A stretch of 3,595 nucleotides of DNA from a virus. Taxonomy: Duplodnaviria; Heunggongvirae; Uroviricota; Caudoviricetes. Made by a program: the position numbers and the translations under genes. The DNA lies in IMG/VR virus record IMGVR_UViG_2623620501_000012, positions 1 through 3,595 of that record, one strand, 5' to 3'. The first letter of the stretch is position 1. Every line of letters begins with the position of its first letter. The notes under the pieces were generated by a model. It made no database searches. It was not told where the DNA came from and saw only the letters and a list, made by a program, of their open reading frames with translations. Positions 1 through 3,595 of the stretch are shown piece after piece.

Positions 1-390
1 ATGCCATTTGCTCGTTATTTCTGCATTTTCATAAATGTTGGTTTGGGAGAAGCGGCTAAAAGGAATGTAGGGACAGGGGCGAATCAGATACCTGATATGG
101 GTAGCTTCACGCTTTCTGTTTCAGGTACTGGATATCAAAAATTACCATCAGGTTTTATTCTTCAGTGGGGCTCAATCGGCGCACCAGGCATTGCACAGGA
201 TGTAGTAACCCATTTCCCGATTGCATTTCCAAACAGATGTCTGCGTGTTTTGGTCTCACAAGACTACACACCAGATAGCGGGAATGTTGGTTATATTGCC
301 TGTGCAGGTTTTAGTCCCGACCCGGTTAAATTTATATCCAGAGCCAGTACTCCTGGCCTCGGCGCTTCATTTTTAGCGTTAGGCTGTTAA
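1..390 (+). CDS. Alternative tail-fibre C-terminal (receptor-binding) cassette, silent in this orientation; functional part probably begins at the crossover site near nt 40, not at the ATG at nt 1
   Basis: ORF track 1..390 (129 aa). Codons at nt 37-54 (VGLGEA) are identical in sequence and frame to the LGLGEG codons of the minus-strand tail-fibre gene at the other crossover site. The C-terminal region ([16 protein letters not shown]) looks like a phage fibre tip domain from recollection only. No RBS or promoter is visible before nt 1. It is followed 21 nt later by a tail-fibre assembly gene. Confidence 0.6.
26..51. other. Serine-invertase crossover site (hix/gix/pix-like), left boundary of invertible segment
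   Basis: Seen in sequence: nt 38-52 ttggtttgggagaag is the exact reverse complement of nt 1935-1949. The inner half-site and central TT dinucleotide are perfectly conserved; the outer half (ttttcataaatg) is degenerate, as is typical of hixL/hixR and gixL/gixR pairs. Confidence 0.7.
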
Positions 391-411
391 TTTAGCTATA
401 TGGAGTGAAAA

Positions 412-852
412 ATGAATTACATATATTCCGCGACTACAAACTCTTTCTATCCGCTGGAGATGAAAGAGGATTACACTCAAGCTGACTCATGGCCAGATGA
501 TGCTGTTGAAGTTGATGAGCAAGTGTATATTGAGTTTTCCGGATTACCGCCGAAAGGAAAAATCCGTATCGCTGGAGAAAATGGTTTTCCTGCATGGTCT
601 GAAATTCCACCACCAACACATGAGGAACAGATTGCTGCAGCCGAACTGGAAAAGCAGCAACTGATTAATCAGGCCAACGATTATATGAACAGTAAACAAT
701 GGCCTGGTAAAGCGGCTATTGGCCGGCTGAAAGGTGAGGAACTGGCGCAATATAATTTGTGGCTGGATTATCTGGACGCACTGGAACTGGTCGATACTTC
801 CGGTGCGCCAGATATTGAATGGCCTACGCCTCCGGCAGTTCAGGCCAGATGA
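412..852 (+). CDS. Tail-fibre assembly protein (Tfa/U-type chaperone), 146 aa, partner of the silent fibre cassette
   Basis: ORF track 412..852. GGAG sits 7 nt upstream of the ATG (ggagtgaaaaATG). The C-terminal motif APDIEWPTPP matches the conserved C-terminal signature of phage tail-fibre assembly proteins. Position immediately downstream of a fibre C-terminus. Confidence 0.8.
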   Translation: MNYIYSATTNSFYPLEMKEDYTQADSWPDDAVEVDEQVYIEFSGLPPKGKIRIAGENGFPAWSEIPPPTHEEQIAAAELEKQQLINQANDYMNSKQWPGKAAIGRLKGEELAQYNLWLDYLDALELVDTSGAPDIEWPTPPAVQAR

Positions 853-1417
853 CGTCCGGCGCTGTGCTGGTATCTGTTGCCGTCACCGCGTCAATGTAAT
901 CCAGCACAGCGTTAAGTCGGGTGTTTTCTGGCTGCGTCAGCTTCCGCCCAGCCTGTAATTTCATTTGAATCAGACTGATGGAAGCCATTGCAGCATCAAT
1001 CAGCGACTGGCGCTGTGCTTCTGCCGCTTCTACTGCGGCGCTATGCTGTGCCTCGGTATCCGTCACCCATTTCTCACCATCCCATTTATCGTATGGCGTT
1101 AACGGTGAAAGCGTGACATAACCGTCTTTGATGGCACCGATATAATCCACTGTAACAGCTGCGCCATTTTCAGTTGAGTAAACGGTCTCATTACGATGGT
1201 CTTCTTCATGGCTCCATCCCTTACCCGTAAATACTGCCACTTTTCCCGGAATGTTTTCGCCCGGGTCAATACCAGTGGAACAGGCGGGTATACTTACGCC
1301 AGTATTAATATATTCATCAGACCAGCCGGTATATTCATACGTTACTGCATTATAATAAAAACAACGCATATCGCCCGGCACTGTAGCCAGCCCATTTTCA
1401 TCAAAAACAGGTTTCAT
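824..1417 (-). CDS. Tail-fibre assembly protein (Tfa/U-type chaperone), 197 aa, partner of the currently expressed fibre
   Basis: ORF track 824..1417 minus. Start ATG overlaps the stop of the upstream fibre gene (TAATG at 1415-1419). SD-like GAGGG lies upstream (reverse complement of 1424-1431). C-terminal motif APDVIWPELPEA is typical of Tfa proteins. Converges on and overlaps the other tfa gene by 29 nt. Confidence 0.8.
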   Translation of the reverse strand: MKPVFDENGLATVPGDMRCFYYNAVTYEYTGWSDEYINTGVSIPACSTGIDPGENIPGKVAVFTGKGWSHEEDHRNETVYSTENGAAVTVDYIGAIKDGYVTLSPLTPYDKWDGEKWVTDTEAQHSAAVEAAEAQRQSLIDAAMASISLIQMKLQAGRKLTQPENTRLNAVLDYIDAVTATDTSTAPDVIWPELPEA

Positions 1418-2241
1418 TATTTAGCCCTCACCAGAAAGTTAAATGCAATATTTCGTGGACGGGTTTCTGTACCTACATGTCCACTAATTTCACCATAACG
1501 TTTAACACTACGAGAGCTAAGAGCTCGTAGTGAGGAAGGCACCTTAAGACCGGGTTCGTCCGTTTTAACTATTCCCCCGTCACCATATGTAGCCAGTATT
1601 CCTGGGTTTACTCCTTCCCGTGCACTTCCTGCAGCAAGCCCGTCCCCCGTCCACAATTCCATATTGTGTGCATGATCCATAATTGTGTGTGATTGCCCTG
1701 AAAGTAGGGTACGTCCGACATCAATCCCGCGCCCATCATCCCAGATACGAATGAAATCACCCCGTGCGTCAGGTAATGCTAGCGCCGGAAACGCTTTCGC
1801 CAGCACAGGGTAATCAGTGGCAGAGAATTTCGCGCCGTTGAACTTCAAAAACACCATACTGGACCAACTGTCGATTACAGTATTTGGCATTGCGGCGGAC
1901 GGCCAGAAGAACGGAACGCCAATAGCTGGAGCACCTTCTCCCAAACCAAGGTTTTCGAGAGCCTTTTGCACCGTGCCGTCCAATTTGATATCGCCAAACG
2001 GATTCTTGCGGCTTAACAGCAACGCGCGAAGCGCGGTAAGTAGCTGATCCGTTTTTTTGGGGTCAGGTTGAATATGTGCACCACCAAGAACATTAAGGAG
2101 TTCCTGCTGTAAATCACGGGTTGCCCCCTGCTGATTGTTTAAATAACCAGCAGTCACGAGGGTTCCTTCTATCCCCTGAGTGGGGTCACCATCATGAAAC
2201 AATTGATCCGGTGTATTTATCGGGGGCATCAGATTTTGCAT
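1417..2241 (-). CDS. Tail-fibre protein, 274 aa: constant N-terminal part (aa 1 to about 97) fused at the crossover site to a variable collar-type C-terminal domain
   Basis: ORF track 1417..2241 minus. Strong SD AAGGAGG (reverse complement of about 2249-2256) precedes the ATG at 2241-2239. TAATG overlap with the upstream gene. The C-terminal half contains a phage-tail-collar-like pattern (FNGAKFS...YPVLAKAF...LPDARGDF...[14 protein letters not shown]). The crossover site encodes [10 protein letters not shown] at aa 94-103. Confidence 0.8.
1936..1961. other. Serine-invertase crossover site (hix/gix/pix-like), right boundary, embedded in the tail-fibre coding sequence
   Basis: Seen in sequence: TTCTCCCAAACCAAGGTTTTCGAGAG, a 26-bp site with a palindromic AAACC-AA-GGTTT core. 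From memory it resembles hixL (TTCTTGAAAACCAAGGTTTTTGATAA) and gix sites. The inner half is the inverted repeat of 38-52. Confidence 0.75.
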
Positions 2242-2813
2242 TACTGCTCCTCCTTATATGTGAAATGGCAATAAGTAAAAGCGGGTTTAAGGTCTTTAAA
2301 TGTTTCTTCCAGTACAGGGGCACCAAAGGAAAGTAACGGCTCCCCGGCAGCAGATACTCCGGTTCTGAATCTGTAGGCTGGCGTTCTGCTTCCTGTGACA
2401 TTAACCTGCCAAATCCATCGGGCATCTGTTATATAGAGACGATCACCACATCGGTTTATCCCCGCTCTGAATGGATGAAGTTCAGTAATTGTTATGGTGT
2501 ACCCGAGGCTGGCTGCAAGTTGTTTAAAATAAGGGATAGATAACCCACCAGTTGCAGCCATCTTTATAAGAATATTTTCTCGGCGTTCCTGCTGTGTGGC
2601 ACCGTCGCGGGGTATTACTCCATACACTCGTTCCCAGTCAGACAGCGTCATGGATGCGTAAAATGGTGTGACAGATGCAAGCACTCGTGCAGCTGACGCT
2701 TTTACTTCATCCATAATGGCTGCTTCTGCGTTCAGTTCTGCTGAAATATATTTCCCGTTCGGGTCATAGCTGACCGGTGGTAACATGGCACGAAATAAAT
2801 CAACCGTATTCAT
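2241..2813 (-). CDS. Phage tail/baseplate protein, 190 aa (probably the Mu gp48 / P2 gpI / e14 YmfQ-like family), immediately upstream of the tail fibre
   Basis: ORF track 2241..2813 minus. SD-like GGGAGAG lies upstream (reverse complement of 2821-2827). Stop overlaps the fibre start (TAATG). Family assignment rests on synteny and recollection of e14/Mu gene order, not on a verified alignment. Confidence 0.6.
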
Positions 2814-2816
2814 GTA

Positions 2817-2902
2817 TTAACTCTCCCGGGGAAATGGCTGGATATCAATACTCCCCGGACGCAGCCACTCCCATGTGGATTCATTGACAACTGCTTTTAC
2901 AT
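2817..2902 (-). pseudogene. 3' remnant (about 28 codons) of the upstream tail/baseplate gene, truncated by the IS66-family insertion
   Basis: The minus-strand frame is open from the IS boundary down to a TAA stop (reverse complement of 2817-2819), translating ...VKAVVNESTWEWLRPGSIDIQPFPRES*. There is no in-frame start codon between the IS end and the stop, and the stop lies 3 nt before the next gene's ATG, a typical operon junction. Confidence 0.45.
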
Positions 2903-2925
2903 GTAAGCGTAAACTGACCGCCGTA
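2903..2925. repeat. Probable left terminal inverted repeat of the IS66-family element (exact length uncertain)
   Basis: GTAAGCGTAAACTGACCGCCGTA beginning at 2903. The right IR is outside the window, so its extent cannot be confirmed. Confidence 0.45.
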
Positions 2926-2987
2926 TGTAGCCATCAGACGAGAATTGGTAACTTAGACGCCCATCTGATATAGACGGACATCTAAGT

Positions 2988-3413
2988 ATGGAATTACAGG
3001 ACTGGCGAAAAGAACCTCGTAAAAACTATTCGAATGAATTCAAACTTCGTATGGTGGAACTGGCATCACAACCTGGAGCTTGTGTTGCACAGATTGCACG
3101 TGAAAATGGCGTCAATGATAATGTTATTTTCAAATGGCTCAGGCTCTGGCAGAACGAAGGGCGTGTTTCGCGGCGTCTTCCGGTAACGACCTCTTCTGAC
3201 ACTGGCGTTGAATTATTACCTGTAGAAATAACGCCGGATGAGCAGAAAGAACCTGTGGCGGCCATTGCGCCGTCTTTATCCACTTCCACTCAGACCAGAG
3301 TCAGTGCCAGTTCCTGCAAGGTGGAATTCCGTCACGGTAACATGACGCTGGAAAATCCATCGCCAGAGCTGCTCACAGTGTTGATCCGTGAACTGACCGG
3401 GAGGGGAAGATGA
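2988..3413 (+). CDS. tnpA: IS66-family TnpA (Orf1, helix-turn-helix accessory protein), 141 aa
   Basis: ORF track 2988..3413. The N-terminal region (YSNEFKLRMVELASQPGACVAQIARENGVNDNVIFKWLRLW) has the HTH-like pattern of IS66 Orf1. Its stop TGA overlaps the start of the next ORF (ATGA at 3410-3413). Confidence 0.85.
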   Translation: MELQDWRKEPRKNYSNEFKLRMVELASQPGACVAQIARENGVNDNVIFKWLRLWQNEGRVSRRLPVTTSSDTGVELLPVEITPDEQKEPVAAIAPSLSTSTQTRVSASSCKVEFRHGNMTLENPSPELLTVLIRELTGRGR

Positions 3414-3595
3414 TCTCACTCCCATCAGGTACCCGTATCTGGCTCGTTGCCGGCGTTACCGATATGCGTAAATCCTTCAACGGACTGGGAGAACAGGTAC
3501 AACATGTGCTGAATGATAATCCCTTCTCCGGTCACCTGTTTATCTTCCGTGGCCGACGGGGTGACACCGTCAAAATTCTTTGGGCTGATGCTGAT
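3410..3595 (+). CDS. tnpB: IS66-family TnpB (Orf2), N-terminal 62 codons; 3' end beyond the window
   Basis: Manual translation from the ATG at 3410: MISLPSGTRIWLVAGVTDMRKSFNGLGEQVQHVLNDNPFSGHLFIFRGRRGDTVKILWADAD, open to the window end. Absent from the ORF track because no stop falls within the window. Confidence 0.8.
   Translation, partial: MISLPSGTRIWLVAGVTDMRKSFNGLGEQVQHVLNDNPFSGHLFIFRGRRGDTVKILWADAD

Follow-up and report, generated by a model that had tools for sequence, protein, structure and literature searches.

A probable remnant of a Pin-type invertible tail-fibre switch with two tip families and their Tfa chaperones in an Escherichia coli prophage

Do the two oppositely oriented tail-fibre tips encoded in this short stretch of phage DNA belong to unrelated families, each with its own chaperone, and what kind of element carries them? 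The window analyzed here is the whole stretch of 3,595 nucleotides (positions 1 to 3,595 of IMG/VR record IMGVR_UViG_2623620501_000012, Caudoviricetes). It very probably represents a two-state invertible tail-fibre switch of the Pin type (the type of the e14 'P segment') from an E. coli prophage with a Mu-like tail, reduced to a remnant. An initial annotation had proposed two unrelated receptor-binding tips, one expressed and one silent, with distinct receptor specificities and matched chaperones. The ORF list and a reading of the sequence placed its quoted motifs, its HxH motif at 1666-1674 (minus-strand codons cat-gca-cac) and its chaperone lengths of 197 and 146 aa where it had them, the collar-type motifs being encoded in the 274-aa fibre and those of the other tip in the 129-aa ORF. 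The features of the window are as follows.

1..390, plus strand: pin-proximal 129-aa ORF, with a leader of 13-17 aa and then the gp53-like tip cassette (40-390); counterpart of K-12 StfE2 (ORF list, Pfam, passages of PMC12529663)
38..52, no strand assigned: left crossover (pix-type) site TTGGTTTGGGAGAAG, with 15/16 bases of the K-12 e14 repeat TTGGTTTGGGAGAAGG (passages of PMC12529663)
412..852, plus strand: Tfa of 146 aa, TfaP-type, cognate to the gp53-like tip (Caudo_TAP 129.9 bits; best PHROG phrog_188)
824..1417, minus strand: Tfa of 197 aa, TfaE-type, cognate to the collar-type tip (Caudo_TAP 97.3 bits; best PHROG phrog_105)
1417-2241, minus strand: fibre ORF of 274 aa (ORF list)
1417..1947, minus strand: variable tip of the collar type (T4 gp37-like), StfE-type cassette, reading in frame with the constant part (profile, PDB and fold matches)
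1666..1674, minus strand: H-A-H codons (sequence reading)
1935..1949, no strand assigned: right crossover (pix-type) site, within the fibre gene; CCTTCTCCCAAACCAA at 1934-1949 is identical (16/16) to the K-12 e14 repeat (passages of PMC12529663)
1950..2241, minus strand: constant N-terminal part of the fibre, about aa 1-97, baseplate-attaching (54% identity to K-12 StfP from its N-terminus as far as GLGEGA)
2241..2813, minus strand: YmfQ / Mu gp48-like baseplate wedge protein, 190 aa (Pfam Phage_Mu_Gp48 106 bits; phrog_203, baseplate wedge subunit)
2817..2902, minus strand: last 86 nt of the baseplate J/gp47 gene, severed by the insertion sequence (IS) (homology to the E2348/69 prophage stops at 2902)
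2903..3595, plus strand: left end of an ISEc23-like IS66-family element, starting GTAAGCG (NCBIfam IS66 TnpA and TnpB; boundary alignment)
within 2903..3595, plus strand: IS66-family genes tnpA (2988-3413) and, with its 5' end only, tnpB (from 3410)

An inverted repeat (33-57 and 1930-1954) coincides with positions 40 and 1947, where the variable and constant parts meet. Within the window its exact core, TTCTCCCAAACCAA, is present just twice, on the minus strand at 38-51 and on the plus strand at 1936-1949, with 0.06 expected by chance. The two inverted pix/gix-type sites, of which one lies within the fibre ORF, enclose two convergent cassettes, each made up of an alternative fibre C-terminus and the Tfa gene that follows it. 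Megablast matches in other genomes (H4-H9) start exactly at position 38 and end at 1954. A search of the window for a third crossover site, as in a multi-state shufflon like Min of p15B, found two sites only. The K-12 e14 repeats have been inverted experimentally, as described in passages of PMC12529663, and e14 inversion has also been seen in MG1655 cultures (PMC4272514).

Both orientations occur across genomes. In NZ_AP027854 the segment is flipped, with 99.6% identity over query positions 38-1954, and the gp53 tip is joined to the constant part. A near-identical e14 locus (L001) carries the segment unflipped beside an intact pinE, and the L002 locus is flipped relative to both the window and L001. 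On viral contigs the collar tip is fused in 31 loci and the gp53 tip in 21. Each tip is abundant in a short as well as in a long form. In the source strain itself, inversion may likewise have occurred.

The tip that is in frame with the constant part is a collar-type domain of the T4 gp37 kind. It scored 19.6 bits against Pfam Collar (PF07484), below the gathering cut-off of 24 (E=9e-4, profile positions 14-57). This sub-threshold score coincides with a divergent N-terminal part of the collar that bears a 9-residue insertion relative to the T4 collar; the allele escapes Pfam annotation because its collar is mosaic and insertion-bearing. Similarity to solved collar-containing fibres was found at both profile and fold level. 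The single sequence matched T4 gp37 (2XGF) with E=2.7e-5 in phmmer, and the family profile built on the tip (A1) matched 2XGF at 3.2e-18, 9CUY at 2.4e-18 and gp12 (1OCY) at 2.2e-5. In the AlphaFold2 (AF2) model, pLDDT is above 94 in the collar region and below 50 in the middle of the tip, so that structural support is limited to the collar; a Foldseek search with this model ranked 2XGF first (E=4.8e-7), followed by gp12.

In HMMER alignments the HxH motif of the window fell on two gp37 motifs: on AHSHS within the main stretch and, in a second, weak one, on EHSHYIEAWNGTG (H929/H931). Of 128 diverse relatives in an alignment, at least 67 have HxH at the same column. In T4 gp37, H929 and H931 bind iron (PMC6957217). 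The motif of the collar tip may form a trimeric metal site, and the tip as a whole would be built from a collar domain and a short distal domain, with a single HxH motif and, at its C-terminus, the returning strand NIAFNFLVR. A strand of the form NIAFN(F/Y)(L/I)VR is common to the window tip and T4 gp37, and in both HxH is followed by xΦExWxGxG (H929-G940 in gp37). The window tip is shorter (176 versus 242 residues) and has one HxH against seven iron sites in T4 gp37, so that the needle is largely absent from it.

The second tip, in the plus-strand cassette, matched Pfam Gp53-like_C (PF21882) with 57.4 bits against a cut-off of 24.9, over aa 47-129 and all 84 profile positions (1-84). Its profile matched R-pyocin fibres and 4MTM, the PDB entries being 9ZD7, 6CXB, 6CL5 and 4MTM, with E-values from 2e-8 to 2e-7. 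The AF2 model of this tip (pLDDT 36, from a shallow alignment of sequences at least 85% identical) was left unused, and a homologue search with a diverse gp53 profile returned close relatives only and added no diversity. The QWG and FP(I/V)AFP motifs are common to this tip, the foot of R-type pyocin fibres and the C-terminal domain of Acinetobacter phage AP22 gp53 (6CXB, 6CL5, 6CT8, 4MTM; PF21882). Unlike R-pyocin fibres and AP22 gp53, the window tip is one short domain placed directly on the crossover site. R-pyocin fibres also employ a Tfa-type chaperone.

Could the two tips nevertheless be diverged members of a single domain family, their collar-like and HxH motifs having arisen by chance? 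The sub-threshold Collar score of the in-frame tip and the GLGE(A/G)A residues that open both tips would fit this reading, but it is very improbable. Those shared residues are the crossover site itself, and relatives at about 75% identity pass the Pfam Collar threshold. The match lists of the two tip profiles in the PDB are disjoint, hhalign between the profiles gave 11% probability with the GLGE crossover alone aligned, and BLASTP found no similarity between the tips. Chance resemblance to the collar and HxH was rejected on the family-profile matches to 2XGF and on the Foldseek ranking. These comparisons support assignment of the two tips to different families, Collar/gp37-like and Gp53-like_C, as the initial annotation had suspected. 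It had read the pair as two distinct receptor specificities; on the basis of fold class, such a difference in receptors is plausible.

The two Tfa genes converge, the 3' end of the 197-aa gene overlapping the 146-aa gene by 29 nt, and both products exceed the cut-off of Pfam Caudo_TAP (PF02413). The 146-aa Tfa is 60% identical to K-12 TfaP over 102 aligned residues, and the 197-aa Tfa is 62% identical to K-12 TfaE. Each gene lies directly downstream of its cognate tip and combines a conserved C-domain with a variable N-domain. The two chaperones differ in their N-domains and best PHROGs. The initial annotation had them share only an APD-(I/V)-x-WP motif, whereas a whole C-terminal domain of 72 residues is common to both (38% identity, E=3e-11; shared C-domain PHROG). 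Single-sequence PDB searches with either Tfa gave nothing significant, and there is therefore no direct link to the TfaMu structure.

Linkage of tips and chaperones was surveyed in 85 interrelated loci chosen via the C-domain of the 146-aa Tfa type. The Tfa146-type N-domain came after a gp53-like tip in 77/77 cases and the Tfa197-type N-domain after a collar tip in 72/73; the loci being related and selected by that C-domain, these counts are not independent events. Identity between tips correlated with identity between the N-domains of their Tfas (rho 0.57 and 0.70); the C-domains mostly stayed about 90% identical. This strict linkage and the co-variation in sequence support the proposal of a matched chaperone for each tip. 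The modular Tfa model of North et al. 2019, as summarised in passages of PMC9608196, is in line with this. By analogy with Mu, P1 and e14, the variable N-domain would bind its own tip and the conserved C-terminal helical domain would drive trimerisation. Such tight linkage between tip class and Tfa N-domain helps in choosing chaperones for engineered fibres.

Taken as a switch, the locus consists of a 1.9-kb segment (38-1949) between inverted pix sites, one of them at the fibre-gene codons for GLGE, with two convergent cassettes that each supply a C-terminal fibre tip and its own Tfa chaperone. The captured orientation joins the constant N-terminal 97-104 residues to the T4 gp37-like tip, followed by the 197-aa Tfa; the gp53-like tip, of the R-pyocin-foot type, and the 146-aa Tfa point in the opposite direction, behind the short pin-proximal leader. 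If it works as in Mu, P1 and e14, a serine invertase would flip the segment and so exchange the tip-plus-chaperone pair on the constant part, and the exchange would alter receptor recognition by the fibre.

The arrangement is ordinary and already documented as the textbook host-range switch of e14, Mu and P1. In the Mu G segment (S/U and S'/U', with Gin) and the P1 C segment (with Cin), a constant fibre N-terminus is combined with two C-termini, each with a Tfa, and a hix/gix/pix-type site lies in the fibre gene. The switch logic of the window is the same. Its constant part bears a weak resemblance to residues 47-109 of Mu S (5YVQ, E=0.07), neither tip profile matched the structures of Mu S and S' (5YVQ, 8JU3) at E<=1, and the fibre is 274 aa long against 504 aa in Mu. 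With T4 gp37 (2XGF) and gp12 the window shares the collar domain, and its chaperone is a Tfa (Caudo_TAP) as against gp38/gp57A in T4.

The closest parallel is the P segment of K-12 e14 (ycfK/StfP-TfaP-TfaE-StfE-PinE), which has the same gene order, convergent Tfa genes with a 29-nt overlap and the same short pin-side leader beginning MPFA(C/R)YF. The comparison with e14 StfP and StfE that the initial annotation had in view returned the same dichotomy, K-12 StfP scoring 58.7 bits on Gp53-like_C and K-12 StfE 57.4 bits on Collar. In e14, as in the window, the Gp53-like_C tip goes with a Tfa of about 140 aa and the Collar tip with one of about 200 aa. The tip alleles differ (27% identity for gp53-like, 43% for collar), as do the segment lengths (1912 bp in the window, 1797 bp in K-12 e14). 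In its constant part and its YmfQ the window has the Mu-like-tail type of E2348/69, with 54% and 26% identity to e14, and it was captured in the 'inverted' (StfP2/StfE2) state of e14. The discovery value is small, since K-12 and hundreds of annotated genomes already have this pairing of collar tip with long Tfa and gp53-like tip with short Tfa.

Unlike K-12 e14, the source has a truncated invertase and a baseplate operon cut by an IS66-family element. The operon is cut at 2903, where this element begins; copies 99% identical to it are annotated as IS66-like and lie beside an ISEc23-family transposase. On the source contig, beyond the window, the pin invertase comprises 31 codons only, joined to the 3' end of uidB, and the segment has no intact invertase gene next to it; the locus therefore counts as the remnant of an invertible system. 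With the cis invertase lost after codon 31 and the baseplate operon cut by the IS, the switch would be fixed in one state unless an invertase came from another prophage, and the remnant alone cannot build a tail. None of the five tail proteins of the window has an NCBIfam model, and Rfam gave no match. Promoter and terminator consensus scans gave nothing beyond shuffled expectation, with no site upstream of either fibre ORF. What had been called the expressed tip is one that is in frame with the constant part, in a locus where the upstream baseplate J gene is cut by the IS66-family element at 2903 and no promoter was found, and its expression state can be presumed at most.

The label 'silent' for the gp53-like cassette was an assumption. 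The cassette belongs to an ORF with its own ATG and a leader that shares 17 of its first 24 residues with K-12 stfE, and PGAP has annotated a 130-aa form of it in hundreds of genomes. In passages of Kirigo et al. 2025 (PMC12529663), the K-12 counterpart StfE2, consisting of this leader and the gp53-like domain (residues 47-125) in the inverted e14 state, is reported to be active against phage T2 and to block its adsorption. The 129-aa ORF, a pin-proximal leader joined to a gp53-like domain and standing free, has the same composition.

These features allow a different account of the remnant, in which the host has kept it as an anti-phage module, with the 129-aa ORF as a free receptor-masking protein of the kind reported for StfE2 and the collar fusion as the StfP2 counterpart. 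We consider this unlikely. The layout does equal the inverted e14 state in which StfE2 blocks T2 adsorption (passages of PMC12529663), the ORF has its own start and stfE-like leader and its widespread PGAP annotation, and the element, truncated at either side, still has all five ORFs intact. However, intact ORFs are equally compatible with recent decay, and no promoter-like site precedes the 129-aa ORF on the source contig. With the K-12 StfP/StfE2 domain the gp53-like domain shares only 27% identity, so that receptor masking need not carry over. The functional evidence for StfE2 in the passages of PMC12529663 consists of plasmid expression and docking, and those passages report no native stfE2 transcription. 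A two-state fibre switch reduced to a remnant is the reading we prefer. An extended form of the anti-phage account appears slightly more doubtful still: host use would have kept the five ORFs intact, the 129-aa ORF would be a free receptor-masker of the StfE2 kind, and the diversity of gp53-like alleles in remnants would form a repertoire of phage-blocking specificities, switched by trans-acting invertases of other prophages. The ORF that is usually called 'silent' is nonetheless the counterpart of StfE2, for which passages of PMC12529663 claim an anti-phage role, and remnants of this kind are candidates for testing that claim.

The window carries a tail-fibre switch with the same architecture as the P segment of the E. 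coli K-12 prophage e14, an invertible tail-fibre switch. Its features are as follows.

2241-2813, minus strand: YmfQ / Mu-gp48-like baseplate protein, first in minus-strand order
1417-2241, minus strand: tail fibre of 274 aa, after the baseplate protein
824-1417, minus strand: Tfa chaperone of 197 aa (Tfa197), after the fibre; Caudo_TAP (Pfam)
1-390, plus strand: ORF of 129 aa, convergent on the minus-strand genes
412-852, plus strand: Tfa chaperone of 146 aa (Tfa146), convergent on the minus-strand genes; Caudo_TAP (Pfam)
33-57 / 1930-1954, inverted pair: inverted repeat found by repeat detection in the window
2903-3595: left end of an IS66-family element, beginning GTAAGCG, with tnpA and the 5' end of tnpB

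We refer to the variable fibre tip (1417-1947, minus strand) as the collar tip, to the cassette at 40-390 (plus strand) as the gp53-like tip, and to the fibre N-terminus (1950-2241, minus strand) as the constant part. The exact 14-nt core of the 33-57 / 1930-1954 repeat has only two copies in the window, against a chance expectation of 0.06. At their 3' ends the two Tfa genes share 29 nt (824-852), as they do in K-12 e14 (positions 4518-4546 of locus L004), and an 18-nt inverted repeat (762-779 / 888-905) corresponds to homologous LDY(L/I)DA codons of both Tfa genes.

The K-12 e14 gene order is ymfQ-StfP-TfaP-(TfaE-stfE inverted)-pinE. PMC12529663 describes experimental inversion of its repeats, TTGGTTTGGGAGAAGG and CCTTCTCCCAAACCAA, to which the window crossover sites are identical at 15/16 and 16/16 bases, respectively. 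Judged by sequence, the window proteins are alleles of the K-12 e14 proteins, with identities of 43% (collar tip and stfE), 27% (gp53-like tip and StfP), 62% (Tfa197 and TfaE), and 60% (Tfa146 and TfaP). The constant part and YmfQ differ from those of K-12 e14 and are of the type found in the E2348/69 Mu-like-tail prophage. In K-12 e14, Pfam assigned StfP to Gp53-like_C (58.7 bits) and stfE to Collar (57.4 bits), and the two-tip dichotomy is therefore already the prototype's own. The e14 P segment was shown in 1985 by Plasterk and van de Putte (as cited in PMC4272514), and annotations of the system exist in thousands of genomes; isolated P2-like and Mu-like phages also carry it. Neither the type of tail-fibre switch in the window nor its details are new.

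The initial annotation proposed two unrelated tips, and comparison of the two bore this out. BLASTP detected no similarity between the collar tip and the gp53-like tip, the PDB match lists of their profiles were disjoint, and hhalign gave 11% probability, aligning only the LGLGE crossover residues. Profile searches placed the tips in Collar/gp37-type and Gp53-like_C families. The gp53-like tip matched Gp53-like_C across the whole model (57.4 bits), and its profile matched 9ZD7 (2e-11), the R1 pyocin fibre (6CXB, 2e-8), 6CL5, 4MTM (2e-7), and R2 pyocin. The tip-tip comparisons and the profile matches contradict a single family with trivial divergence, as well as an insignificant collar motif.

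As a single sequence, the collar tip scored 19.6 bits against Pfam Collar (E=9e-4), below the threshold of 24, and a Pfam search of the E2348/69 allele gave no match whatever. Relatives at ~75% identity have precomputed Collar hits. The low score is explained by the first half of the collar, which matches the E2348/69 allele and, like it, is divergent, with a 9-residue insertion in the alignment. The distal half, including the HxH motif, is common to other alleles with a canonical collar, so the collar tip is an intragenic mosaic; the mosaic is most evident at 1750-1930 (minus strand). phmmer matched the T4 gp37 tip 2XGF (E=2.7e-5) over the collar, one HxH, and the C-terminal NIAFNxxVR, and a profile of 18 relatives matched 2XGF (3.2e-18), the short tail fibre 9CUY (2.4e-18), and T4 gp12 (2e-5 to 1e-4). 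An AF2 model built with 83 diverse sequences had pLDDT >94 over the collar (residues 8-68 and 165-176) and was poor between these stretches, as would be anticipated when one chain of an intertwined trimer is modelled alone. In a Foldseek search of the PDB with this model, 2XGF was the top match (E=4.8e-7) and gp12 came next. The family comprises 4656 representative clusters at E<=1e-3.

The tip motifs quoted in the initial annotation were all found in the window proteins, with the HAH codons at 1666-1674 as reported. HxH occurs in at least 67 of 128 diverse collar-tip relatives with residues at this column (P0241-P0389). A further group has an AIRNITG-type sequence without histidines there, pointing to two alternative distal architectures on the same collar; the E2348/69 allele also lacks HxH. 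In the main HMMER stretch the window motif aligned to gp37 AHSHS, and in a weak second stretch, not significant alone, to gp37 EHSHYIEAWNGTG. The second stretch includes gp37 H929 and H931, which are iron-binding and essential, as I933, N937, G938, and G940 are likewise essential (PMC6957217). With one HxH per chain, a trimer would bring together six histidines, sufficient in number for a putative octahedral metal site.

The two chaperones had been described as sharing only a C-terminal motif. They instead share a whole C-terminal domain (72 residues, 38% identity, E=3e-11), represented by PHROG 3792; their best PHROGs differ (188 for Tfa146 and 105 for Tfa197). The survey covered 85 loci, made up of the window, four loci from E. 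coli, and 80 viral contigs that were retrieved by way of the conserved C-domain. A fibre ORF lay upstream of 155 Tfa genes. Among these, members of the Tfa146-type N-domain cluster lay behind gp53-like tips in 77/77 cases and members of the Tfa197-type cluster behind collar tips in 72/73, counts that describe linkage and not independent events, since the loci are related to one another. Within each class, the closer a tip was to that of the window, the closer its Tfa N-domain tended to be as well (Spearman 0.57 and 0.70). C-domains in the sampled rows stayed at ~87-99%, even with tips as low as 26-55% and N-domains as low as 34-52%, apart from a single gp53-class outlier whose C-domain was at 34%. 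Linkage and identity tracking together support a matched Tfa for each tip. The co-variation agrees with the modular Tfa model of North et al. 2019 (summarised in PMC9608196), which assigns tip binding to the variable N-domain and trimerisation to the conserved C-domain.

Both orientations of the segment are found naturally. Among complete E. coli genomes there are exact matches to 38-1954 on either strand relative to the flanks. NZ_AP027854 has the segment flipped (99.6% identical), so that the constant part is joined to the gp53-like tip (213 aa) and the collar tip is a short pin-side ORF; the e14 of strain PCP06173 has the window orientation, with pinE ~30 bp past position 1. In homologue searches each tip was abundant both as a long and as a short form. 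Across 64 viral-contig loci with a convergent pair, the fused tip was collar in 31 and gp53 in 21. In the viral contigs (L005-L084), the constant parts to which the pair is attached come in at least seven lengths (about 98, 122, 179, 281, 356, 383, and 658 residues ahead of the GLGE crossover), and the pair therefore circulates as a unit among Mu-like and P2-like prophages. Fibre residues 44-100 (1942-2112, minus strand) weakly resembled (E=0.07) residues 47-109 of 5YVQ, which lie in the N-terminal region of the Mu tail fibre S; this is consistent with Mu-type baseplate attachment of the constant part.

A search upstream of the two fibre ORFs gave no sigma-70-like site, a result that weighs little in either direction. 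In architecture the 129-aa ORF is identical to K-12 StfE2, with a stfE leader followed by a gp53-like domain. This domain shares only 27% identity with its K-12 counterpart. According to Kirigo et al. (PMC12529663), StfE2 blocks T2 adsorption, with functional tests by plasmid expression and docking; a term search of that article turned up nothing on native stfE2 transcription. The label 'silent' for the 129-aa ORF is therefore an assumption, and an StfE2-like activity is, by analogy, a candidate alternative. The label 'expressed' for the collar tip and a receptor difference between the two tips are likewise putative.

The prophage element is a five-ORF remnant, unable to make a tail. The baseplate J gene is cut at 2902/2903 by the IS66-family element, which is ISEc23-like (99%-identical copies adjoin an ISEc23-family transposase), leaving the last 86 nt (2817-2902). 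The IS on this flank removed the remainder of the tail operon, and the source contig (LAUC01000044.1 of GCA_001637785.1, of whose end the window is the reverse complement) ends inside it. Beyond position 1, resemblance to the e14 pin region extends for 122 bp only, a short spacer and 31 pin codons. The truncated pin is joined to the 3' end of uidB, followed by uidC, ydgA, manA, fumA, fumC, and tus (L085 3598-4080, source contig). The cis invertase is therefore gone, and inversion of the segment is possible only with an invertase from another prophage. Such supply is described for K-12 in PMC12529663, with PinQ/PinR acting on e14.
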